Part shown: positions 1 through 38,300 of the stretch, in pieces
How positions within the stretch are numbered: the stretch's first letter is position 1
Layout of the letters: each line of letters starts with the position of its first letter
Virus genome (UHGV): UHGV-0186551
Strand: one strand, 5' to 3'
DNA: 38,300 nucleotides
From: a virus
Position numbers and translations under genes: made by a program
The notes under the pieces: model-generated
The model's input: the letters and a program-made list of their open reading frames with translations, nothing else
What the model was told of the DNA's origin: nothing
Database searches by the model: none

Positions 1-14
1 TAGTATAAAAAAGC
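1..14. repeat. att core (attR copy), tagtataaaaaagc; window begins inside the core
   Basis: Identical to 37207..37220; is the reverse complement of the lambda core GCTTTTTTATACTAA (first base presumably just left of position 1). Confidence 0.85.
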
Positions 15-160
15 TGAACGTGAAACACTAAAAACCATTAATATCAATGCATTACAATAAATTTAGCTTAAAAAATAGACTATATAATACTGCAAAACGC
101 AACATATGCAGTCACTATGAATCAACTACTTAGATAGTATTAGTGACCTGTAACAGAGCA
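15..160. other. attR P-arm (Int arm-site/IHF/Xis binding region, phage side of attR)
   Basis: Sequence following the core recalls the lambda attP P-arm in reverse complement (recollection, not aligned); individual protein sites not mapped. Confidence 0.55.
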
Positions 161-201
161 TTAGCGCAAGGTGATTTTTGTCTTCTTGCGCTAATTTTTT
201 G
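161..201 (+). terminator. sib/tI-like hairpin with T-run (int retroregulation element in the free phage)
   Basis: ttagcgcaag ... cttgcgctaa inverted repeat followed by tttttt. Confidence 0.5.
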
Positions 202-290
202 TCAACATACTGGGTTATCTGAATTTACAGCCATGCTCAGTATCTCGATAAGCGCAGAGAAATGATGCAGTGGTGGGCGGACTGGCTTGA

Positions 291-314
291 TGAAAAGGTG
301 GAGTGAACCACCTT
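291..314 (-). terminator. Possible terminator hairpin downstream of the 218-aa gene
   Basis: aaggtgg/ccacctt stem with adjacent A-run on + (U-run on - transcript). Confidence 0.3.
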
Positions 315-422
315 AACCACTATCGAAGAGCACAAAACCTTGCAATCAAGTGCAAAGCTTTGTGTGTTATTTTTTATGGCTATATAAATTATATACTGCC
401 AGTGCTATCTAACATTTAAATA

Positions 423-1079
423 TTATGAACTATAATAAGTCCTAATCTTTACAGATGAAAGCATAATCTTCCAAGCTTGATCGCTACCCAACCACTCATC
501 GTTGGTTGGTTCATTATCACCAGATACTACATAAGTATCTGGCATATCAAAGTCTATATTGCAAAGGTCTTCTCCTTTGCGCTCCTTAAAAATAAGAAGA
601 TCTATTTTTGTTGTTGGGAATTTTTTATCCAAAACACTTCTCAGTTTATACACAGCATCTCGTTCTGCATTCAATCTAACGAGTAAAACACGTTCCGACT
701 CATTGATTTTCTCTATAAATCTTTTTCTTCTCGCCTTTATTTTTTTCATCATATTAAACAAGCAGACTTCAATACCTTGTTTTTCATAGTCATCAATAAG
801 AATATCGTGAATACTTCGAAATCCAGTCGCTGTATCTGTGATATCAATACAATTTTTAAATCTGCCATTAATTTTTATATTTTCAGGCAAGAAAAGGTGG
901 TCGCACCCCTTATTAATTATTTTTGTAACTTGAGGTAGTTTTTGAGAGGCAAACCAATCAAATGGTCCACTAAATGTCCTCAACCCAAATCGCTTTAACC
1001 TTCCTGCTGGTTGACATTTTTTACCAAGGCTTGCTATAAAATCATACTCTCCACAAGGAAGAAAAAGGCCTTTATTCAT
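423..1079 (-). CDS. Hypothetical protein, 218 aa; N-terminal motif SLGxxC...PFDW reminiscent of DUF1796 (putative papain-like fold); AT-rich accessory gene
   Basis: ORF track 423..1115; start moved to ATG at 1079 (MNKGLF...) which has an AGGAAA ribosome-binding site; AT-rich composition unlike the rest of the prophage. Confidence 0.7.
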   Translation of the reverse strand: MNKGLFLPCGEYDFIASLGKKCQPAGRLKRFGLRTFSGPFDWFASQKLPQVTKIINKGCDHLFLPENIKINGRFKNCIDITDTATGFRSIHDILIDDYEKQGIEVCLFNMMKKIKARRKRFIEKINESERVLLVRLNAERDAVYKLRSVLDKKFPTTKIDLLIFKERKGEDLCNIDFDMPDTYVVSGDNEPTNDEWLGSDQAWKIMLSSVKIRTYYSS

Positions 1080-1196
1080 ATGATTTTCCTTACATTTTAT
1101 GACGACAAAAATCATAACATTGCCTTATTAATCAGTCAAACAGTTAACAAATGCAAACAAACAAGTAAGCACATTGTTGATAATTTGTTTATTTTT

Positions 1197-1811
1197 ATGT
1201 TTTTGTTATCTATACCATTTTTTTCATTTGCTTCTGATACAAACAAAACGCCACCATATCGCATGAGGGAGTCGATGTTTGAGTTATTAAAGGAGCAAAG
1301 GGATATTGTTATGCTTGGCGATAGCATAACCGCGCGAGGAGAGTGGAATGAGCTTCTTCCTAGTTTATCTGTAGCAAATAGGGGCATTGGGGGAGATGAA
1401 GTTAAATTTATGAAAAGAAGGATTGATTCTATATTTTTATTAAAGCCCAAATATGTATTCATTATGGGCGGAACAAATGATTTCAGAAGAAAAAGAAGTG
1501 TTGATGATGTGGTTCGTGACTATAAGCATATAATAAAAAAACTACACAAACACAGAATTAATGTATTCATTCAGTCCACCCTTTACGTGTCAAGAGAAAG
1601 CAGGTTAAATGACAACATAAAAATATTAAAATTAAACAATGCAATAAATAACTATTGCTCTGTATCTAATTATTGTCGTTTCGTAGATCTTAACGTGCAC
1701 ATGGCAAAAGATAGAAAAATACTAGCTAAGTATAGCGATGATGGAGTCCATCTAAATGGTAATGGGTATTTAATGTGGGCGTCAATCATATACCCTTTAA
1801 TTAAAAAATAA
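1197..1811 (+). CDS. SGNH/GDSL-family hydrolase (esterase/lipase-like) with hydrophobic N-terminus, probably exported or membrane-anchored
   Basis: Motifs GDSIT, GIGGD, GGTNDF, DGVHLN in SGNH block order; N-terminal MFLLSIPFFSFA; start uncertain (ATG 1080, TTG 1185 or ATG 1197; track start 1011). Confidence 0.75.
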   Translation: MFLLSIPFFSFASDTNKTPPYRMRESMFELLKEQRDIVMLGDSITARGEWNELLPSLSVANRGIGGDEVKFMKRRIDSIFLLKPKYVFIMGGTNDFRRKRSVDDVVRDYKHIIKKLHKHRINVFIQSTLYVSRESRLNDNIKILKLNNAINNYCSVSNYCRFVDLNVHMAKDRKILAKYSDDGVHLNGNGYLMWASIIYPLIKK

Positions 1812-1817
1812 GAATAG

Positions 1818-1849
1818 TAAAAAACCATCTCATTATGAGGTGGTTTTTT
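1818..1849. terminator. Bidirectional rho-independent terminator between convergent hydrolase and tailspike genes
   Basis: Hairpin aaaaaccatctca / tgaggtggttttttt with A-run before and T-run after. Confidence 0.6.
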
Positions 1850-1930
1850 ATATAGAATAAAGCAATAGAGGTTTATTTTATTTGTTTATCATGGCTTAAT
1901 GCACTAGCACTTTAATTGAAAAAACTATAT

Positions 1931-4330
1931 TTATTTTAGTATCCATCCGGTATTTCCTGTTCCTGTTTTTTTTTGATACCAATCACCATTATAATCAATG
2001 TACATTGACCCCTTAGGTGCGGTCACAACACCCTCAGGTGAACCGGAGCCTCTATAAATTCCAAAGAGAGTTGTACCTCTTACTTTCTCGTATGCAAACA
2101 ACAAACCATCTGAAGCCCTTCTGATACGCAACGGTTCGTGCTCTGAGTCCGATGCAAATGTAGTGGTGCCGTTTGAATCTGTTTCCCTGGAAAAACTTCC
2201 ATCTGTTCTTGTTCCTTCAATGATCGAATTTGGGTAGTTTGGATCATCAGATGAATGTAACCTAATATAGGAACTATTTGATGCTGATACCCCCCTACCC
2301 CTTAAAATCAATCCCTTAAATGATGACGTAAATAGTGCCTGGATTGAGCCATAAACAGTGTTATCACTACCGTTTTGCTGATCGTATATTCTTAGTCTTG
2401 AGCTATTATCATACATAATAGCGTTGAAGTACTCACCAAGACGTTCGCTAAATGCAACAATATTAAAAGCATTGCGCCATCTAAATGATATATTTCGCCC
2501 GCTTTCTCCGGCATCTACACCTGCATTACTTGAAGCATTGGTTATGCCAGAATTAAGGTTCTGCTCATCGTTGTTACCAGTCGCTGGTCGTATAGAGTAA
2601 ATTGTCTTTTTCTCAAGAGAATAGCTACTTCCCCATCCATAATCTGTATCAGGACTCCAGTCTCCAGAATTTGCATCCTTGGTTGTTTCCACCCAATAAG
2701 AGCCATTTGATGGAGGAACACCAATTATTCCAGAAGTCTCAATAGATGATGCAGCCCATCTTCTTCCACGCCAGTTTACAATATTAGCTCCTGCCCTCCA
2801 TGTTTCTATGCAGCTTATAATTATTTCTTCGCCACGAATAGTTAAACCTTCCGGCTCGAATCTGGCTGGATTCCCAAGAGTTGGATGGTTAAGCAACCCA
2901 TCGCGCCCATATTGCGACCTTGCATCATCGATATCTAATTTTCTTAGTAAATTACCTGTTAAATCATATGTAAAGATATGATGCTTTCCAAAAGCATTAG
3001 TGCCTCCCTTAAGTATATGTATATATCTTCCATCAGACGCAATACCTTGTACAGAGTAAGCGCCTTCAGAAGGTGAGTCGCTCATTTCCCAAACAAACAT
3101 GGGGTTTGCTAATGTTTTATCTTCAAGTTTATCAATTGATATTTTATCGTATATAAATACAGTTCGTTTAGCGGCATCACTCTTTGGTGTATTAACCATT
3201 ATTAAAAGACGACCGTCAGAAGAAATGGCAATTCCTGCACGATTGTAATCTTGAAATGGGTGACCGCTACCAGTAATCCCCCATACATTATAACTTTTTA
3301 CGTCAGACTGAGTTGTTCCTGCCCCTCGCCAAGTTATTTTACTAAACCCTTTGCCTGCAGACTCCCCATCTTCACCTGAATTGGTTACACTTGATGTATA
3401 TAAATATACTTGACCATTCTCCACCATGGCAGAAAGATCAAATCCGTGCCCAAGGTTTAATTCTGGAGAATACGCAACATGGTTTACTACCCTTCCATCA
3501 TCATAAAGATTAAACTCAACAATACGAACTCTTTCTTTATCCGACCAGGTTGGCCCAACAGGCCGTTGTGTGACAAATAGTTTTTCAATGCCATTAACAC
3601 GGCAATATGCGATCCCCTGTAACGCATTTCTGGCATTAGGATAAATTTCTGTGTTTGTTTCTCCCTGAAAACCAAAAAAAGGTTCCATCATTTTTCTCTG
3701 CGCAAGTTTGTCAGTTTCAAGTAGACGAGAAACGGAAATAAGAGAGCCATTATCTGCAACAATCCTCCCAATACCTCGAGCAGAAGATACATCAACTTCG
3801 AGAGTATTTACTGCAAAATCGCCATCAGGAACAAACATTCTATAGCCTGCGTTAGAGAATGCCTCAGTAGCGTCAGTTATTCCATCACTGATAGCCCCCC
3901 AACCGCGAACATCTTTGTCATCACGCCATCGTGCAATCTGCAATTCGGGATATTTTTTAGCACCATCCGGGTCTTCTAACTGCTGCCGTAGCTGATCCGG
4001 GTCATACTTCAGCACATTAGGGAAATAGAACTGCTGAGTGCCATATGCATCATATACAGCCATAGAATGGCCTTGAACAGTTACGAATTTGGCAATCTGC
4101 CCGTTATATACCGGATATCCAGCAGCGTTAATGATGATTGGCTGCGAAACAGGAACATGAGAGCCGTCTTCGTTCTCTACATAAACCTGAATCTGGTTTT
4201 CTGGACTTACCGGGTCAGTGTCAATTTTTCCGATATAAATTTTGCCGTTGGCTACTGCTTTAAAAGAACGCGCCATAGTGAAGAGTTGCGAAGGCATACT
4301 CACTACAACATTGGCTGTAATGTCTGTCAT
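1931..4330 (-). CDS. Tailspike, 799 aa: P22-type N-terminal head-binding domain joined to a divergent receptor-binding domain
   Basis: First ~115 aa ([11 protein letters not shown]...[11 protein letters not shown]...LKYDPDQ) match P22 tailspike N-terminus from memory; remainder unrecognised. Confidence 0.9.
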
Positions 4331-18656: not shown

Positions 18657-18914
18657 CTACTTCGCTTTTGCTTCCGCTCGCTTACGCCGGCGCTCTTCTT
18701 TCCTCTCGGCTTTTGCCATGTCCACGAATGCCTGCATGATCGAGTTCCGCATCATGTAGCTAACAAAGTGATGATTGACACAGCCGTTGAGGCGCAGCTG
18801 CTCGCCAAACTCATCCACCGAGGCCAATGCTTCCATCATGCCCTTCTCGCCTTTCATGAACTCTGAGAAGTCGCGCCCCGCTCTGGAGGCGCATTCAATG
18901 ACACGATCACTCAT
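18657..18914 (-). CDS. Hypothetical protein, 85 aa, basic C-terminal tail; translationally coupled to the KilA-N gene
   Basis: Start overlaps the KilA-N stop by 4 nt. Confidence 0.65.
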   Translation of the reverse strand: MSDRVIECASRAGRDFSEFMKGEKGMMEALASVDEFGEQLRLNGCVNHHFVSYMMRNSIMQAFVDMAKAERKEERRRKRAEAKAK

Positions 18915-19408
18915 CCCGGAAGCCCGGGGATCGTTATCTGCAGCTGGTTAGCCAGGGAGTTAATCTCAGCGACCAACACTGGCTTCGTATAGCGCCATGC
19001 CGCCAGCCCTTGTCCACAGAAGCTCGCCATATCTTTTTTCTGATCAAACTCATGACACTTCATATTGAGCTGCGCACTTAAGCTGTTGCGATGCTGAAGT
19101 TCTCCGGTGAAGTAGTCATCCAGGACTTTATAGGCTGCATATTTAAATCCGGGGTTTAGCCATGCTGCATAATCATAAGCAACAAACTTCCCGCCATATG
19201 TTCCACCGTGTACACCGCGCTCAGTAAAAACCACAGATTCGTGGTTTTTCTCCAGCTCGGCTAAGAACTCTTTGGTCTGCTTGTTTCGCAGGTAGTGGTA
19301 CGGAGATTCAGATTCACTTTTACCACTGGCTTTCCACATATCAGTGAGGCAGATCATGCCATCTTCACCGATACGAATTGGTTGATTGAAGAGGGTTAAT
19401 GATTTCAT
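18911..19408 (-). CDS. KilA-N domain protein, 165 aa
   Basis: IRIGEDGMICLTDMWKASGK...LRNKQTKEFLAELEK...AYDYAAWLNPGFKYAAYKVLDDY matches the KilA-N pattern. Confidence 0.7.
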   Translation of the reverse strand: MKSLTLFNQPIRIGEDGMICLTDMWKASGKSESESPYHYLRNKQTKEFLAELEKNHESVVFTERGVHGGTYGGKFVAYDYAAWLNPGFKYAAYKVLDDYFTGELQHRNSLSAQLNMKCHEFDQKKDMASFCGQGLAAWRYTKPVLVAEINSLANQLQITIPGLPG

Positions 19409-20827: not shown

Positions 20828-21230
20828 GTCTTACCCCCAATAAGGGGATTTGCTCTATTTAATTAGGAATAAGGTCGATTACTGATAGAACAAATCCAGG
20901 CTACTGTGTTTAGTAATCAGATTTGTTCGTGACCGATATGCACGGGCAAAACGGCAGGAGGTTGTTAGCGCAACCTCTTGCCACCCGCTTTCACGAAGGT
21001 CATGTGTAGAAGGCCGCAGCGTAACTATTACTAATGAATTCAGGACAGACAGTGGCTACGGCTCAGTTTGGGTTGTGCTGTTGCTGGGCGGCGATGACGC
21101 CTGTACGCATTTGGTGATCCGGTTCTGCTTCCGGTATTCGCTTAATTCAGCACAACGGAAAGAGCACTGGCTAACCAGGCTCGCCGACTCTTCACGATTA
21201 TCGACTCAATGCTCTTACCTGTTTTGCAGA

Positions 21231-21290
21231 TATAAAAAATCCCGAAACCGTTATGCAGGCTCTAACTATTACCTGCGAACTGTTTCGGGA
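21231..21290 (-). terminator. tR' terminator (end of 6S late leader RNA)
   Basis: Extended hairpin cccgaaac...gtttcggg followed by U-run on the - transcript. Confidence 0.7.
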
Positions 21291-21426
21291 TTGCATTTTG
21301 CAGACCTCTCTGCCTGCGATGGTTGGAGTTCCAGACGATACGTCGAAGTGACCAACTAGGCGGAATCGGTAGTAAGCGCCGCCTCTTTTCATCTCACTAC
21401 CACAACGAGCGAATTAACCCATCGTT
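21231..21426 (-). ncRNA. 6S-like late leader RNA from pR' to tR' (qut region at its 5' end)
   Basis: About 195 nt between the predicted pR' start and tR', as in lambda. Confidence 0.5.
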
Positions 21427-21432
21427 GAGTCA

Positions 21433-21461
21433 AATTTACCCAATTTTATTCAATAAGTCAA
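21433..21461 (-). promoter_or_regulatory. Late promoter pR'
   Basis: -35 TTGACT (21456..21461) and -10 TAAATT (21433..21438) on the - strand, 17-bp spacer, just downstream of Q. Confidence 0.7.
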
Positions 21462-21503
21462 TATTATGCCGTTAATATGTTGCCATCCGTGGCAATCATG
21501 CTG

Positions 21504-27118: not shown

Positions 27119-27936
27119 GCAATCCCCCTGTCTGCAAACTTCCCTTCACGAACTCCCGTTAACGAATCTTCCCTCAGCAGGTAATCAAAATCTGCCGTCC
27201 AGCCAGTGTCGTTGTCTCCGAAGTAAAACGGCTTGGCCTGATGCACAAACGCCCTGACATACGCCCTGAAACCGTCCACGTTTGGCGTTTTCAGTTGCGG
27301 GATGATTTTCTTCAGGCGGCGTTTGCGTTTCTCGTTGACCGCAACAGCGTGTGGAAGTCTGTCACCGACTTCGGCGTTGTAGGCGTTCAGGAAGGATTCG
27401 TAGTCGATTCGTTCTGCCTTGCGACGTTCAGGTTTAACCTGCCCATCGCCGCCCCCGTTAGGGGGTAAGGGGGTATTTGTATTTATTGTCTTTTGTATAT
27501 TGTCTTTTGTGTTTAGCTGACTTGGCTTATACCCATTAGCCGACTCGGCTAATGTTTTATTAGCTGTTTTAGCTAATGTTAAGCTGTCCTGGCTAATCCA
27601 CTGCGAAACCACCTTGTTCACTCCGATTTTCACGCCATCAGCAATGAGGAATTTACGCTCGATAAGCTGGCGCTTGGCAGCGCAAACATGAGTGTGATGA
27701 ATACCTGTCATGGCTGCTATCTGCGTGTTTGTGAGTCGATCCATCGGCTTATTGAATCCGTATGTCTTGCGCATGATAGCGAGCATCACCTTCAGCTGCC
27801 GGACGGTTAAATCAGCCATCAGCAGACTGTCGGTAATCTCGTTAGCAACGCGCATGAAACCATCTTCGGTATCTGCCACGCGATGCTCCACGACCTCCAG
27901 TTGAGGCCTGTAATCAGCTAACTTAACGACGCCCAT
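27115..27936 (-). CDS. O: Replication initiator O (iteron-binding, lambda O-like)
   Basis: 273 aa; N-terminus DLT.RQ.KV.LAI.RKTYG.NKPMDR recalled from lambda O; iterons inside the gene. Confidence 0.85.
27470..27596. repeat. Replication origin: four about 17-bp palindromic iterons (consensus near TTAGCnnnnnnnGCTAA) plus adjacent AT-rich element containing a duplicated ttgtcttttgt
   Basis: Iterons at 27513..27529, 27536..27552, 27560..27576, 27579..27596; AT-rich 27470..27512; inside the O gene as in lambda. Confidence 0.75.
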
Positions 27937-28084
27937 GTTTCACTCCTGCTTTGGCTAGTCTGTAAACACCAACAAGGCGCTCTGCGAACGCCCTGTTATT
28001 TGCTGCGGCTACCACTAATCCCTCAGGTGAATCAGGGTGTCGAATCTCTTCTTTTTCCTGGTATTTCTTACGACGTTTTGTCAT
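27923..28084 (-). CDS. Possible small basic protein, 53 aa (MTKRRKKYQEKEE...)
   Basis: ATG at 28084 with AGGAG ribosome-binding site; overlaps O start by 14 nt; hand-translated. Confidence 0.3.
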   Translation of the reverse strand: MTKRRKKYQEKEEIRHPDSPEGLVVAAANNRAFAERLVGVYRLAKAGVKHGRR

Positions 28085-28119
28085 AATTACTCCTGTGGAT
28101 TGATACAGTCTTTCTACAA

Positions 28120-28398
28120 TCAGGCCTCAAAACTGTTGCCGCAGTCTTGAGGCTTTTCTTTTGTCAGCACCATGGCTACTTTCTTTGCCAGCTCCGCTAA
28201 TTCCTCGTCTTCAACACCCCACTCCAGCACAGCCAGAAGCATGGCCATCTTTGGGATAAAGCTGTCTTTCCATCGCGAAATTTGCGATTCATTGATCCCT
28301 AATGCATCAGCAACCTTTCGCTGACCACGTACAGCAATTCGATTTAGGATGTTGCTTGTAATTGCATTCGCTTTCTTGCGAGTACTTGTAAGTTGCAT
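28120..28398 (-). CDS. cII: Lysogeny establishment activator CII
   Basis: SQISRWK...MLLAVLEWGV motif as in lambda CII; start moved to ATG at 28398 (track start 28485). Confidence 0.85.
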   Translation of the reverse strand: MQLTSTRKKANAITSNILNRIAVRGQRKVADALGINESQISRWKDSFIPKMAMLLAVLEWGVEDEELAELAKKVAMVLTKEKPQDCGNSFEA

Positions 28399-28457
28399 AT
28401 GTAAGTATTTACTTAACAAATAAGAAGTTATGCGCATCAACTTATGCGCGTTGTATT

Positions 28458-28500
28458 CCCGCATTTCGGCGGGAATGAGGACCATGACTGTTAAAGAGCG
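28458..28500 (-). promoter_or_regulatory. nutR (boxA cgctctttaa, boxB hairpin cccgccgaaatgcggg)
   Basis: boxA/boxB read on the - strand between cro and cII; boxB identical to the nutL copy. Confidence 0.75.
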
Positions 28501-28506
28501 GTGTTA

Positions 28507-28701
28507 CTATTTGTTTTTCTTGTTGCTTGGGAAAGGACGAACTTCCTCTCCAATCACACTGCCATCAGGCTTTACCGTAACCATGATGTTACGGCCTGCC
28601 AGAATGGCCTTGCTGATAGCGCACTGGATTACACCAAAGTCACTGGCTGCTTTAGCCTGTCCATGGATTTTGGCGTAATCGGCAAGTGTCATTCGAATCA
28701 T
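28507..28701 (-). CDS. cro: Cro repressor
   Basis: TL.DYA...GQ.K.A.D.GV.Q.AI.KA...GR.I......DGSV..EEV.PFPSNKK as in lambda Cro; ATG at 28701 (track start 28707 is GTG). Confidence 0.9.
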
Positions 28702-28730
28702 ATGCACTCTCCGTTATTAACCATGAACAA

Positions 28731-28799
28731 AGAATACTACAGGTATTCAAAGCAATCAATACTCAGGGTATTTTTAGTTTAAGTACCTTAGCTATTAGA
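28731..28799. promoter_or_regulatory. oR/pR/pRM region: operators near gaatactacaggtattc (28732..28748), aatactcagggtatt (28758..28772), degenerate third (28783..28799); pR -10 28731..28736 and -35 28754..28759 on - strand
   Basis: Inverted-repeat operators sharing consensus with oL sites; pR -35 TTGATT, 17-bp spacer, -10 TATTCT; probable leaderless cI transcript. Confidence 0.65.
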
Positions 28800-28807
28800 A
28801 TTAAGCT

Positions 28808-29524
28808 ATGGAAAATAAAAAATCACTGACGACAGAACAGCTCGAAGACGCTAAGCGGCTTAAGGCTTTGTATGAGTCAAAAAAGAAAGAATTGGGAATA
28901 ACCCAATACTCAATCGCTGATGAACTGGGTATCACCCAAGGAGCGGTAGGGCATTATCTTAATGGCAGAAACGCGCTAAACGTTGAGGTTGCATCTGGTT
29001 TTGCACGATTGTTGCAAGTCTCAATTGCTGATTTTAGCCAGTCAATTGCTGCCAAGGTTGCAGAACAGGCAGAAAGCCTTAAGAGCGATGCCAACGTAAG
29101 GTATGCAGGGGAATACAGAGCAGGAAAGAGGTATCCGGTGTTAAGCAGTATCCAGGCTGGCTCGTGGTGTGAAGCATGCGAACCATACACCATTAAAGAC
29201 ATAGATGTTTGGCTTGAGTCTGACGCGCATATTCAAGGTAATGCGTTCTGGCTTAAAGTGGAAGGTGATTCAATGACGGCACCGGTTGGGTTAAGCATTC
29301 CAGAGGGAACATTCGTTCTTTTCGATACCGGAAGGGAGGCGATCAACGGCAGCTTGGTCATAGCAAAACTTTCTGACTCTAACGAAGCAACATTCAAGAA
29401 GCTGATAATCGACGGCGGAAATAAATACCTCAAGGGACTTAATCCTGCATGGCCTCTCGTGCCAATCAATGGAAACTGCAAGATTATAGGCGTTGCAATT
29501 GAGACAAAACTAAGGCTGGTTTGA
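28808..29524 (+). CDS. cI: CI repressor (N-terminal helix-turn-helix, C-terminal S24 LexA-like autocleavage domain)
   Basis: 238 aa; LTTEQLEDAKRLKALYESKKKELG... and AFWL.VEGDSMTAP as in lambda CI. Confidence 0.9.
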   Translation: MENKKSLTTEQLEDAKRLKALYESKKKELGITQYSIADELGITQGAVGHYLNGRNALNVEVASGFARLLQVSIADFSQSIAAKVAEQAESLKSDANVRYAGEYRAGKRYPVLSSIQAGSWCEACEPYTIKDIDVWLESDAHIQGNAFWLKVEGDSMTAPVGLSIPEGTFVLFDTGREAINGSLVIAKLSDSNEATFKKLIIDGGNKYLKGLNPAWPLVPINGNCKIIGVAIETKLRLV

Positions 29525-35557: not shown

Positions 35558-35590
35558 TGGCTAAGGCAGCAGCAGAGCGCAACTAACAAT

Positions 35591-35646
35591 CCTCGCACTC
35601 GCGGGGATTTCTTTTATCTGAACTCGCTACGGCGAGTTTTGTTTTA
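35591..35646 (+). terminator. Tandem hairpins with T-runs upstream of orf55/xis
   Basis: cctcgcactcgcgggg + atttctttt and aactcgctacggcgagtt + ttgtttt. Confidence 0.5.
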
Positions 35647-35658
35647 TGGAGATGATAA

Positions 35659-35826
35659 ATGCACTTCCGAGTCACAGGTGAATGGAATGGAGAACCATTC
35701 AACAGAGTTATCGAAGCAGAGAACATCAACGACTGCTATGACCACTGGATGATATGGGCGCAGATAGCACATGCAGACGTAACCAATATTTGTATTGAAG
35801 AACTGAAAGAACACCAAGCCGCCTGA
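35659..35826 (+). CDS. Lambda orf55-like hypothetical protein
   Basis: 55 aa hand-translated (MHFRVTGEWNGEPF...); lies upstream of xis as in lambda. Confidence 0.55.
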   Translation: MHFRVTGEWNGEPFNRVIEAENINDCYDHWMIWAQIAHADVTNICIEELKEHQAA

Positions 35827-35865
35827 TGGCGGTTTTTTCTTGCGTGTAATTGCGGAGACTTTGCG

Positions 35866-36084
35866 ATGTACTTGACACTTCAGGAGTGGAACGCACGCCA
35901 GCGACGCCCAAGAAGCCTTGAAACAGTTCGTCGATGGGTACGCGAGTGCAGGATATTCCCTCCTCCTGTTAAGGACGGAAGAGAGTATTTGTTCCACGAA
36001 TCAGCGGTAAAGGTTGACTTAAATCGACCAGTAACAGGTAGCCTTTTGAAGAGGATCAGAAATGGGAAGAAGGCGAAGTCATGA
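35866..36084 (+). CDS. xis: Excisionase Xis
   Basis: 72 aa, MYLTLQEWNARQRRPRSLETVRRWVRECRIFPPPVKDGREYLFHESAVKVDLNRPVTG.LLKRIRNGKKAKS as in lambda Xis. Confidence 0.95.
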   Translation: MYLTLQEWNARQRRPRSLETVRRWVRECRIFPPPVKDGREYLFHESAVKVDLNRPVTGSLLKRIRNGKKAKS

Positions 36085-37132
36085 GCGCCGGGATTTACCC
36101 CCTAATCTTTATATAAGAAACAATGGATATTACTGCTACAGGGACCCAAGAACGGGTAAAGAGTTTGGATTAGGCCGAGACAGGAGGATAGCAATCACTG
36201 AAGCAATACAGGCCAACATTGAGTTATTTTCAGGACACAAACACAAGCCTCTGACAGCGAGAATCAACAGTGATAATTCTGTTACGTTACATTCATGGCT
36301 TGATCGCTACGAAAAAATCCTCGCCAGCAGAGGAATCAAGCAGAAGACACTTATAAATTACATGAGCAAAATTAAAGCAATAAGGAGGGGTCTGCCTGAT
36401 GCTCCACTTGAAGACATCACCACAAAAGAAATTGCGGCAATGCTCAATGGATACATAGACGAGGGCAAGGCGGCATCAGCCAAGTTAATCAGATCAACAC
36501 TGAGCGATGCATTCCGAGAGGCAATAGCTGAAGGCCATATAACAACAAACCCGGTCGCTGCCACTCGCGCAGCAAAATCAGAGGTAAGGAGATCAAGGCT
36601 TACGGCTGACGAATACCTGAAAATTTATCAAGCAGCAGAATCATCACCATGTTGGTTAAGACTTGCAATGGAACTGGCTGTTGTTACCGGGCAGCGAGTT
36701 GGTGATTTATGCGAAATGAAGTGGTCTGATATCGTAGATGGATATCTTTATGTCGAGCAAAGCAAAACAGGCGTAAAAATTGCCATCCCTACAACATTGC
36801 ATGTTGATGCTCTCGGGATATCAATGAAGGAAACACTTGATAAATGCAAAGAGATTCTTGGCGGAGAAACCATAATTGCATCTACTCGTCGTGAACCGCT
36901 TTCATCCGGCACAGTATCAAGGTATTTTATGCGCGCACGAAAAGCATCAGGTCTTTCCTTCGAAGGGGATCCGCCTACCTTTCACGAGTTGCGCAGTTTG
37001 TCTGCAAGACTCTATGAGAAGCAGATAAGCGATAAATTTGCTCAACATCTTCTCGGGCATAAGTCGGACACCATGGCATCACAGTATCGTGATGACAGAG
37101 GCAGGGAGTGGGACAAAATTGAAATCAAATAA
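36062..37132 (+). CDS. int: Tyrosine integrase Int
   Basis: 356 aa matching lambda Int as recalled; overlaps xis 3' end as in lambda. Confidence 0.95.
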   Translation: MGRRRSHERRDLPPNLYIRNNGYYCYRDPRTGKEFGLGRDRRIAITEAIQANIELFSGHKHKPLTARINSDNSVTLHSWLDRYEKILASRGIKQKTLINYMSKIKAIRRGLPDAPLEDITTKEIAAMLNGYIDEGKAASAKLIRSTLSDAFREAIAEGHITTNPVAATRAAKSEVRRSRLTADEYLKIYQAAESSPCWLRLAMELAVVTGQRVGDLCEMKWSDIVDGYLYVEQSKTGVKIAIPTTLHVDALGISMKETLDKCKEILGGETIIASTRREPLSSGTVSRYFMRARKASGLSFEGDPPTFHELRSLSARLYEKQISDKFAQHLLGHKSDTMASQYRDDRGREWDKIEIK

Positions 37133-37205
37133 TGATTTTATTTTGACTGATAGTGACCTGTTCGTTGCAACAAATTGATAAGCAATGCTTTTTTATAATG
37201 CCAAC
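37133..37205. other. attL P'-arm
   Basis: Sequence between int stop and core recalls the lambda P' arm in reverse complement (not aligned). Confidence 0.7.
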
Positions 37206-37220
37206 TTAGTATAAAAAAGC
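37206..37220. repeat. att core (attL copy), ttagtataaaaaagc
   Basis: Reverse complement of the lambda 15-bp core; 37207..37220 repeats positions 1..14. Confidence 0.9.
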
Positions 37221-37266
37221 AGGCTTCAACGGATTCATTTTTCTATTTCATAGCCCGGAGCAACCT

Positions 37267-38300
37267 GTGAACACATTTTCAGTTTCCCGTCTGGCGCTGG
37301 CATTGGCTTTTGGCGTGACGCTGACCGCCTGTAGCTCAACACCGCCCGATCAACGTCCTTCTGATCAAACCGCGCCTGGTACCTCTTCTCGCCCGATTCT
37401 GTCGGCAAAAGAAGCGCAGAATTTCGATGCTCAACACTATTTTGCATCCCTGACACCAGGTGCTGCAGCGTGGAATCCTTCCCCGATTACCCTGCCTGCA
37501 CAACCTGACTTTGTTGTCGGCCCGGCGGGTACTCAAGGTGTAACGCATACCACGATTCAGGCGGCGGTAGATGCGGCAATTATCAAGCGTACCAACAAGC
37601 GCCAGTATATTGCCGTGATGCCTGGTGAGTATCAGGGAACGGTGTATGTCCCTGCCGCTCCGGGTGGAATTACTCTGTACGGTACAGGTGAAAAACCGAT
37701 TGATGTGAAAATTGGGCTTTCCCTTGATGGGGGCATGAGCCCAGCCGACTGGCGTCACGACGTCAACCCACGCGGCAAATATATGCCGGGTAAACCAGCG
37801 TGGTATATGTACGATAGCTGCCAGAGCAAACGCAGCGACAGCATTGGCGTGCTCTGTTCTGCGGTCTTCTGGTCACAAAACAATGGCCTGCAACTGCAAA
37901 ACCTGACCATCGAAAACACACTGGGCGATAGCGTAGATGCGGGTAACCATCCGGCGGTGGCACTGCGTACTGATGGCGACAAAGTGCAGATCAATAACGT
38001 CAATATTCTCGGTCGCCAGAATACCTTCTTTGTCACCAACAGCGGTGTGCAAAACCGTCTGGAAAGCAACCGTCAGCCGCGTACCCTGGTGACTAACAGC
38101 TACATTGAAGGGGATGTGGATATCGTTTCTGGTCGCGGCGCAGTGGTGTTCGATAACACCGAATTCCGCGTGGTGAACTCCCGTACCCAGCAAGAAGCGT
38201 ATGTGTTTGCACCGGCTACGCTGTCCAACATTTACTACGGTTTCCTCGCCGTAAACAGCCGTTTCAATGCTTCCGGGGATGGCGTGGCGCAACTGGGCCG
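37267..38300 (+). CDS. ybhC: Host gene ybhC (putative pectinesterase-family outer-membrane lipoprotein), 3'-truncated by window end
   Basis: GTG start with GGAG ribosome-binding site; lipoprotein signal ...LTACSS; open frame to window end; not in ORF track because it lacks a stop. Confidence 0.8.
   Translation, partial: MNTFSVSRLALALAFGVTLTACSSTPPDQRPSDQTAPGTSSRPILSAKEAQNFDAQHYFASLTPGAAAWNPSPITLPAQPDFVVGPAGTQGVTHTTIQAAVDAAIIKRTNKRQYIAVMPGEYQGTVYVPAAPGGITLYGTGEKPIDVKIGLSLDGGMSPADWRHDVNPRGKYMPGKPAWYMYDSCQSKRSDSIGVLCSAVFWSQNNGLQLQNLTIENTLGDSVDAGNHPAVALRTDGDKVQINNVNILGRQNTFFVTNSGVQNRLESNRQPRTLVTNSYIEGDVDIVSGRGAVVFDNTEFRVVNSRTQQEAYVFAPATLSNIYYGFLAVNSRFNASGDGVAQLG

Follow-up and report, generated by a model that had tools for sequence, protein, structure and literature searches.

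In the standard nomenclature of the phage lambda integration system, the prophage end attL is written C'OB, and excision, which Fis stimulates, also requires the excisionase Xis on the attR P arm (PMC4880445). The sib element of lambda lies distal to int and lowers the synthesis of Int from transcripts that start at pL (PMC5300877, PMC2951348). In the phages KplE1, HK620, Sf6, and CUS-3, the att site is located upstream of the integrase gene intS and overlaps the int promoter (PMC2951348). Lysogeny upstream of ybhC, as well as induction, has been shown experimentally for phiHS3, a P22-like temperate phage of E. coli HS (bioRxiv 10.64898/2026.05.19.726188).

Here we compare with these systems the two ends of a prophage contained in the viral genome UHGV-0186551, one strand of which, with its full length of 38,300 nucleotides, is referred to as the window. 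The original prediction, made from the sequence alone, held that a 14-bp direct repeat bounds a prophage next to the host gene ybhC, the left copy lying at the very start of the window. Lambda arms at both ends, a host flank on the right and, in related sequences, on the left, and an attB that is restored when these flanks are joined uphold this reading. We are highly confident that the two copies are the common cores of attR and attL, left behind when a circular P22-like phage integrated by lambda-type recombination at attB between ybhC and ybhB/bioA. At its ends this ordinary prophage, which is already present in public genomes, has the classic lambda attachment site, a matter of textbook knowledge. 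What is gained is mainly correct annotation, with the exact prophage boundaries now fixed, together with a clean example of modular exchange. The features of the two ends are collected in Table 1.

Table 1. Attachment-site, integration, and flanking features of the window (positions in nucleotides from the first base of the window).
Feature	Position	Strand	Sequence	Basis and remarks
attR common core	1-14	none		Bases 2-15 of the 15-bp core; first T just beyond the window edge
C, core-type Int site	8-16	-	CAGCTTTTT	Motif scan; identical to lambda
H2, IHF site	42-54	+	TATCAATGCATTA	Motif scan; fits WATCAANNNNTTR; lambda counterpart TATCAATATATTA
Fis site with A-tract	66-86	-		Homology to lambda; G...C ends and T6/A6 tract kept; overlaps X2
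X2, Xis site	74-86	-	TATATAGTCTATT	2 changes vs lambda; putative, by homology
X1, Xis site	94-106	-	TATGTTGCGTTTT	1 change vs lambda
P2, arm-type Int site	109-118	+	CAGTCACTAT	Identical to lambda; inside the lambda "int 2" binding feature
H1, IHF site	120-132	+	AATCAACTACTTA	Identical to lambda; invariant across 7 attP alleles
P1, arm-type Int site	140-149	-	AGGTCACTAA	Identical to lambda; inside the lambda "int 1" binding feature
sib/tI hairpin and U run	159-201	+		Lambda identity and fold; stem-loop 159-195, U run to 201
IntS (CPS-53/KplE1-type, argW) integrase remnant	223-306	+		Last 28 codons and stop, no start; annotated as partial pseudogene
Terminator-like hairpin and T run	329-366	+		Follows the IntS remnant; 92% identity with lambda 27510-27473
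Upstream part of lambda-homologous integration module, including pI promoter region	35584-35865	+		blastn to lambda
cII box	35840-35853	+	TTGC-N6-TTGC	Located in the pI region; presumably that of pI, as in lambda
xis, excisionase, 72 aa	35866-36084	+		1 substitution vs lambda Xis (G59S); annotated excisionase
int, lambda-type tyrosine integrase, 356 aa	36062-37132	+		3 substitutions vs lambda Int (H164P, A245T, I248V)
P'3, P'2, P'1, arm-type Int sites	37129-37138, 37140-37149, 37150-37159	-		Motif scan; P' arm as in lambda
H', IHF site	37168-37180	-	TATCAATTTGTTG	Motif scan and lambda identity
C', core-type Int site	37202-37210	+	CAACTTAGT	Motif scan
attL common core, complete 15 bp	37206-37220	none	TTAGTATAAAAAAGC	Exact repeat and lambda identity
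B, host core-type Int site	37214-37222	-	CTGCTTTTT	Read from the sequence; counterpart of C at 8-16
Host ybhC, 5' part, running off the window	37267-38300	+		Annotated ybhC in collinear genomes

The repeat had been described as exact, and a scan of the whole window confirms this, since TAGTATAAAAAAGC occurs exactly twice on the + strand, at 1-14 and 37207-37220, even when one mismatch is tolerated; two matches were reached in 0 of 100 dinucleotide-preserving shuffles. Its length has to be corrected from 14 to 15 bp (TTAGTATAAAAAAGC), as a T precedes both copies: this T is the base in front of 37207, so that the right copy spans 37206-37220, and it also stands in front of position 1 in DNA identical to the window (contigs L011 and L012, with 0 mismatches over 14,330 bases, and L001). 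A direct repeat is therefore found at both prophage ends, the right copy being complete and the left having 14 of its 15 bases inside the window. Read as its reverse complement, the 15-bp sequence matches the lambda common core GCTTTTTTATACTAA (lambda 27724-27738) exactly, and the 7-bp overlap region GTATAAA, placed from what is established for lambda, presumably occupies positions 3-9. No third core-like sequence was met inside the prophage in the same scan with one mismatch tolerated, and the element is therefore one prophage and not a tandem pair.

The window begins one base inside the 15-bp core, and the chance that a random start would fall there is about 4e-4. No public contig among those examined ends at window position 1, and the sole IMG/VR contig with the same first 50 bases belongs to a different prophage and carries 568 bases of host flank. 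This starting point probably results from the way in which the window was extracted and is not a matter of biology.

Inward from the left core, window 15-204 aligns with lambda 27723-27534 collinearly and without indels, and the site motifs stand at homologous positions, so the sequence that had been called P-arm-like is indeed the counterpart of the lambda P arm. Identity to lambda is 55/57 in the outer P arm and 64/83 (77%) in the inner P arm (15-97), where the first mismatch appears 7 bases past the core. By motif scan, the five arm-type sites (P1, P2, P'1-3) and the core-type sites C and C' were located at lambda-homologous positions, as was B, which was read directly, and the IHF sites H1, H2, and H' are three exact matches to WATCAANNNNTTR; the core-type site B' falls outside the window and is present in the identical contigs. 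Among lambda-type phages the inner arm allele is nearest to that of HK106 (75/83), followed by JEP4 (72/83). Across seven lambda-type attP alleles P1, P2, H1, the H2 core AATATCAAT, the common core with C, and nearly all of the sib stem are invariant. Within the diverged inner arm of the present prophage the protein-contact motifs are mostly kept (H2, Fis, X2, X1.5, and X1), the X1.5 homologue having 1 change relative to lambda. Given the single change in X1 and the two in X2, the strength with which Xis and Fis would bind this P arm is not guaranteed.

Next to the P arm, window 155-204 is identical to lambda 27583-27534 at 50/50 positions and includes the sib/tI hairpin, whose RNA folds at -27.7 kcal/mol (z = -4.6) and whose homologue is annotated as a terminator in phage 434. 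A hairpin resembling sib/tI had been proposed at 161-201, which is essentially right, the stem-loop now being refined to 159-195 with the U run reaching 201. A simple terminator scan of 1-1500 passed over this structure on account of an internal stem mismatch and a nested loop, and reported a weak site at 488-509 alone. At gathering thresholds Rfam gave 0 matches over the whole window, so that sib/tI lies outside every Rfam family.

At the other end of the prophage, window 35584-37220 matches lambda 29360-27724 with 97.6% identity and no gaps (blastn). All six catalytic residues of Int are kept (R212, K235, H308, R311, H333, and Y342), and the P' arm (37133-37205) together with the core is 100% identical to lambda. 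The alignment of both att regions with lambda that the original prediction had proposed thus gives full identity in the P' arm, core, and sib/tI, and collinearity in the P arm. Since int, the P' arm, the core, the B site, and ybhC follow each other in an order that fits C'OB, the right end is attL, and its B site is part of the intact attB in genomes with an empty site. The host gene at this end was correctly named as ybhC, although it had been said to follow the right copy immediately; its GTG start at 37267 is 46 bp past the core.

The left host flank, missing from the window, was to be sought by extending the sequence leftwards toward the bio side of the lambda site, where further phage DNA would have spoken against a prophage boundary. 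Two complete E. coli genomes, NZ_AP022003.1 and NZ_CP071954.1, contain window 1-3000 at 100% and 14001-38300 at 99.9% identity, and in both of them the sequence to the left of position 1 reads ...TTCGCTCAAG followed by T, with ybhB, bioA, and bioBFCD further outward. The two contigs without a mismatch to the window over 14,330 bases read ...CGCTCAAGT before position 1, and the host B' arm CGCTCAAG with the T precedes the core both in these identical contigs and in the two complete genomes. From 105 blocks of public assemblies that hold the identical tailspike protein, 24 contigs were read, and all 24 share the neighborhood of DUF1796, ybhB, bioA, bioBFCD, and uvrB. Host DNA is accordingly found on the bio side in the two complete genomes and in 24/24 contigs, upstream phage DNA is absent from every related sequence recovered, and the insertion lies between ybhC on the gal side and ybhB/bioA on the bio side, the left flank being known through related genomes. 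For the window's own left junction, we infer the same arrangement from this identical or near-identical DNA.

A synthetic empty site of 814 nt was assembled from 399 bases of ybhB flank, one core, and 400 bases of ybhC flank taken from the window. Of 5,426 complete E. coli genomes, 3,492 contain it in one contiguous stretch, several of them at 100% identity. Because the host flanks and a single core rejoin in this way into an intact attB, the insertion is precise and accompanied by duplication of the 15-bp core, as is characteristic of recombination by Int at the lambda attB. In the other 1,934 of the 5,426 genomes a contiguous attB is missing, the site being interrupted or altered, a result suggesting very frequent occupancy of the lambda site among natural isolates.

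Could two copies of such a short sequence simply match by chance in AT-rich DNA, unrelated to any recombination? The window contains nine exact direct repeats of 14-17 bp, the att core pair included, where about 2.7 pairs are expected from first-order Markov simulations, and the eight others reach 17 bp (6272/14011, for example), so repeat length alone is not diagnostic. The att pair is set apart from them by its identity to the lambda core, by P and P' arms that adjoin it at the correct distance and in the correct orientation with lambda-like int and xis next to them, and by flanks that rebuild attB in thousands of genomes; these observations already refute a coincidence, to which we attach practically no weight. 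It is also highly improbable that the left core in the source of the window is a junction between two phages (P'OP), with more phage DNA leftward of it as in tandem prophages. The window edge lies one base inside the core, so that the window alone cannot decide this point, and occupancy of the site is probably common, judging from the genomes without a contiguous attB. Against such a junction, a host B' arm and ybhB are found in every related sequence, that is, in the 2 complete genomes and in 24/24 contigs, and the two contigs identical over 14.3 kb likewise have the host flank.

Another view would be that the prophage is grounded, its att sites being relics and its repeat a scar, with excision and particle formation lost. 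Two genes inside the element are flagged as partial by the annotation pipeline (a "regulator" and an ead/Ea22-like gene), and the altered bases in X1 and X2 together with the divergence of the inner P arm point in the same direction. However, the flagged fragments sit in the dispensable early-left region, while Int, Xis, all arm, core, and IHF motifs, sib, and the cII box of pI are intact; the morphogenesis, lysis, replication, and immunity modules are all there with none of their genes flagged as partial, and the same type of inner-arm allele occurs in the sequenced phages HK106, JEP4, and ev099. We therefore consider a grounded prophage unlikely, and with the integration machinery intact, the prophage is probably excisable.

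For the favored reading, integration at the lambda attB, the steps of the mechanism are taken over from lambda, and the parts they need are seen in this sequence. Int would bridge the arm-type sites (P1, P2, P'1-3) and the core-type sites (C, C', B, B') on DNA that IHF has bent at H1, H2, and H', and strand exchange across the 7-bp overlap within the 15-bp core would leave a duplicated core at both ends. For excision, Int together with Xis bound at X1, X1.5, and X2 and with Fis would act on the P arm of attR, and attL and attR would recombine into attP and attB. The arrangement may also bear on expression, as sib is located at the left prophage end and int at the right, so that the two would be uncoupled in the integrated state and coupled again once the phage has excised, as in lambda. 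In circular infecting DNA, sib would lie just downstream of int and cause RNase III-dependent decay, whereas in the integrated state N-antiterminated pL transcripts would lack sib and the int mRNA would be stable. The regulatory inputs for this scheme exist, because an N-type antiterminator and a lambda-family cII are present.

Homology to lambda ends at window 204, right past the U run of tI, and after a junction at 205-222 the sequence continues with a remnant of an IntS integrase. The translation of this remnant, IYSHAQYLDKRREMMQWWADWLDEKVE followed by the stop, matches the C-terminus of the integrase of vB_EcoP-683R2, and from 223 to at least 3000 the window agrees at 99.9% with P22-like prophages whose IntS-type (argW) integrase is complete. 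In these relatives the genes are ordered yfdC, tRNA-Arg, intS, DUF1796, GDSL esterase, and tailspike. A complete intS with an att site at tRNA-Arg, as an argW-type module would have, is not what the present prophage contains, since it retains 28 codons and resides at the lambda att; neither a tRNA nor a tRNA fragment was found in the window by ARAGORN, and an att site of the tRNA type is therefore absent. Complete genomes covering at least 80% of window 1-3000 number 32, and just 2 of them have the lambda att version of the cassette. An IntS remnant directly after sib is also present in 434, JEP4, ev099, and 720R6 (77-80 of 84 positions), while lambda and HK106 are without it. We considered and rejected an IntS att site in the stretch from the remnant to the cargo genes, as IntS-type phages have their att upstream of intS at argW.

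Following the remnant, a terminator-like hairpin is predicted as a stem-loop in the centroid fold, a fold that is not significant against shuffles. Its lambda counterpart was obtained by blastn, a MAFFT global alignment having misplaced lambda beyond position 205. In lambda the homologous hairpin stands 23 nt after sib, and in the window, where the IntS remnant separates the two, it stands 124 nt after sib; here the hairpin probably served the former intS gene as terminator.

From these comparisons, the IntS remnant marks a swap of integration modules, in which the lambda int-xis-attP-sib cassette took the place of an argW-type att-intS module; several lambdoid phages share the junction. The lambda module (35584-37220 and 1-204) is thus best read as a cassette grafted onto a P22-like genome, with its boundary right after the tI terminator. 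What makes the case clean is that a lambda cassette stands in for the IntS module of the argW type, the P22-like backbone being otherwise 99.9% identical and the seam lying at the end of tI, and the remaining details, namely the diverged inner P arm allele and the 28-codon IntS remnant past sib, are of mild interest. Set against neutral mosaicism, it seems doubtful that the inner arm allele could alter the dependence on Xis and Fis and the threshold of excision, or limit recombination with co-resident lambda-type prophages, and, in a related vein, that the IntS remnant and the hairpin after sib may be a recurrent homology linker for swapping lambda att and argW specificity between P22-like and lambda-like phages.

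Compared over lambda 27473-29360, the prophage shares with lambda an identical core, P' arm, P1, P2, H1, C, and sib/tI, the same ybhC-ybhB/bioA site, Int and Xis proteins identical at 353/356 and 71/72 residues, and a conserved cII box of pI. It differs from lambda in the inner P arm and in about 100 extra bases, including the IntS remnant, between sib and the next conserved hairpin, and the rest of the phage is P22-like, that is, a podovirus. The attP alleles of HK106, JEP4, ev099, 434, and vB_EcoP-720R6 have the same core and architecture, and two of these phages, JEP4 and 720R6, are classified as Lederbergvirus (P22-like). Among the matches listed, however, no phage record has this exact allele or module combination, and the best of them covers 63% of window 1-25000. 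phiHS3 is likewise described as a P22-like phage at a ybhC-adjacent site. The IntS/KplE1 (CPS-53) phages at argW (vB_EcoP-683R2, CUS-3, HK620, and Sf6) have the same genome backbone, and in phages of this type the cargo genes, the tailspike, and the final 84 nt of intS show 99.9% identity to window 223-3000. In contrast to the present prophage, these phages carry a complete intS that is transcribed away from the att at tRNA-Arg (argW), whereas here intS is cut to 28 codons and a lambda cassette serves at another chromosomal site.

The element between the cores, attR at 0-14 (0 being the T before the window) and attL at 37206-37220, measures 37.2 kb. Its virion genes encode the small and large terminase, a P22 portal, scaffold, P22 coat, gp4, gp10, the ejection proteins gp7, gp20, and gp16, and the tailspike, that is, a P22-type virion module as in podoviruses of the Lederbergvirus type, and Pfam matches include P22_portal, P22_CoatProtein, P22_Tail-4, Phage_stabilise, P22_gp7, Inj_translocase, Phage_P22_gp16, and Head_binding. 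Its other genes include those for holin, endolysin, a further lysis protein, and a Q-type antiterminator; nin genes, a replication protein, and a DnaB-type helicase; a lambda-family cII, cro, a LexA-family repressor (cI), and an N-type antiterminator; and kil, RecT, xis, and int. The nearest sequenced phages, of the Lederbergvirus type, are vB_EcoP-720R6, vB_EcoP-683R2, CUS-3, JEP4, and Sf101. As far as gene content allows one to judge, the element appears to be an intact P22-like podovirus prophage with a lambda int-xis-att-sib module.

Several further observations concern its interior. About 680 bp between the Q-type antiterminator and the holin (20828-21503) are without an annotated gene; this gap is the late-promoter and terminator region, which in other lambdoid phages carries tRNAs or toxin genes, and it contains neither a tRNA nor an Rfam match. 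Downstream of the lysis genes, a KilA-N domain protein (18911-19408, -) matches PADLOC PDC-S22 weakly over a short stretch (E 1.2e-8). Cargo genes for a DUF1796 papain-like putative cysteine peptidase (423-1079, -) and a GDSL-family esterase/lipase (1275-1811, +) lie between attR and the tailspike, in a slot that in P22-like phages usually holds O-antigen or capsule modification genes, and the pair may serve lysogenic conversion or surface modification. PADLOC gave no credible defense match for these cargo genes, with only a marginal match to a Type I specificity subunit (E 0.0088), and Pfam and PADLOC together revealed nothing unusual in the cargo genes and the unannotated ORFs. The tailspike itself (1931-4330, -; 799 aa) has a P22 head-binding domain at residues 1-113, whereas for its receptor-binding part Pfam gave no confident match and only weakly indicated a beta-propeller RBD (E 0.007). 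To judge from the 105 assembly blocks that hold the exact tailspike protein, this prophage or its tailspike cassette is widespread.
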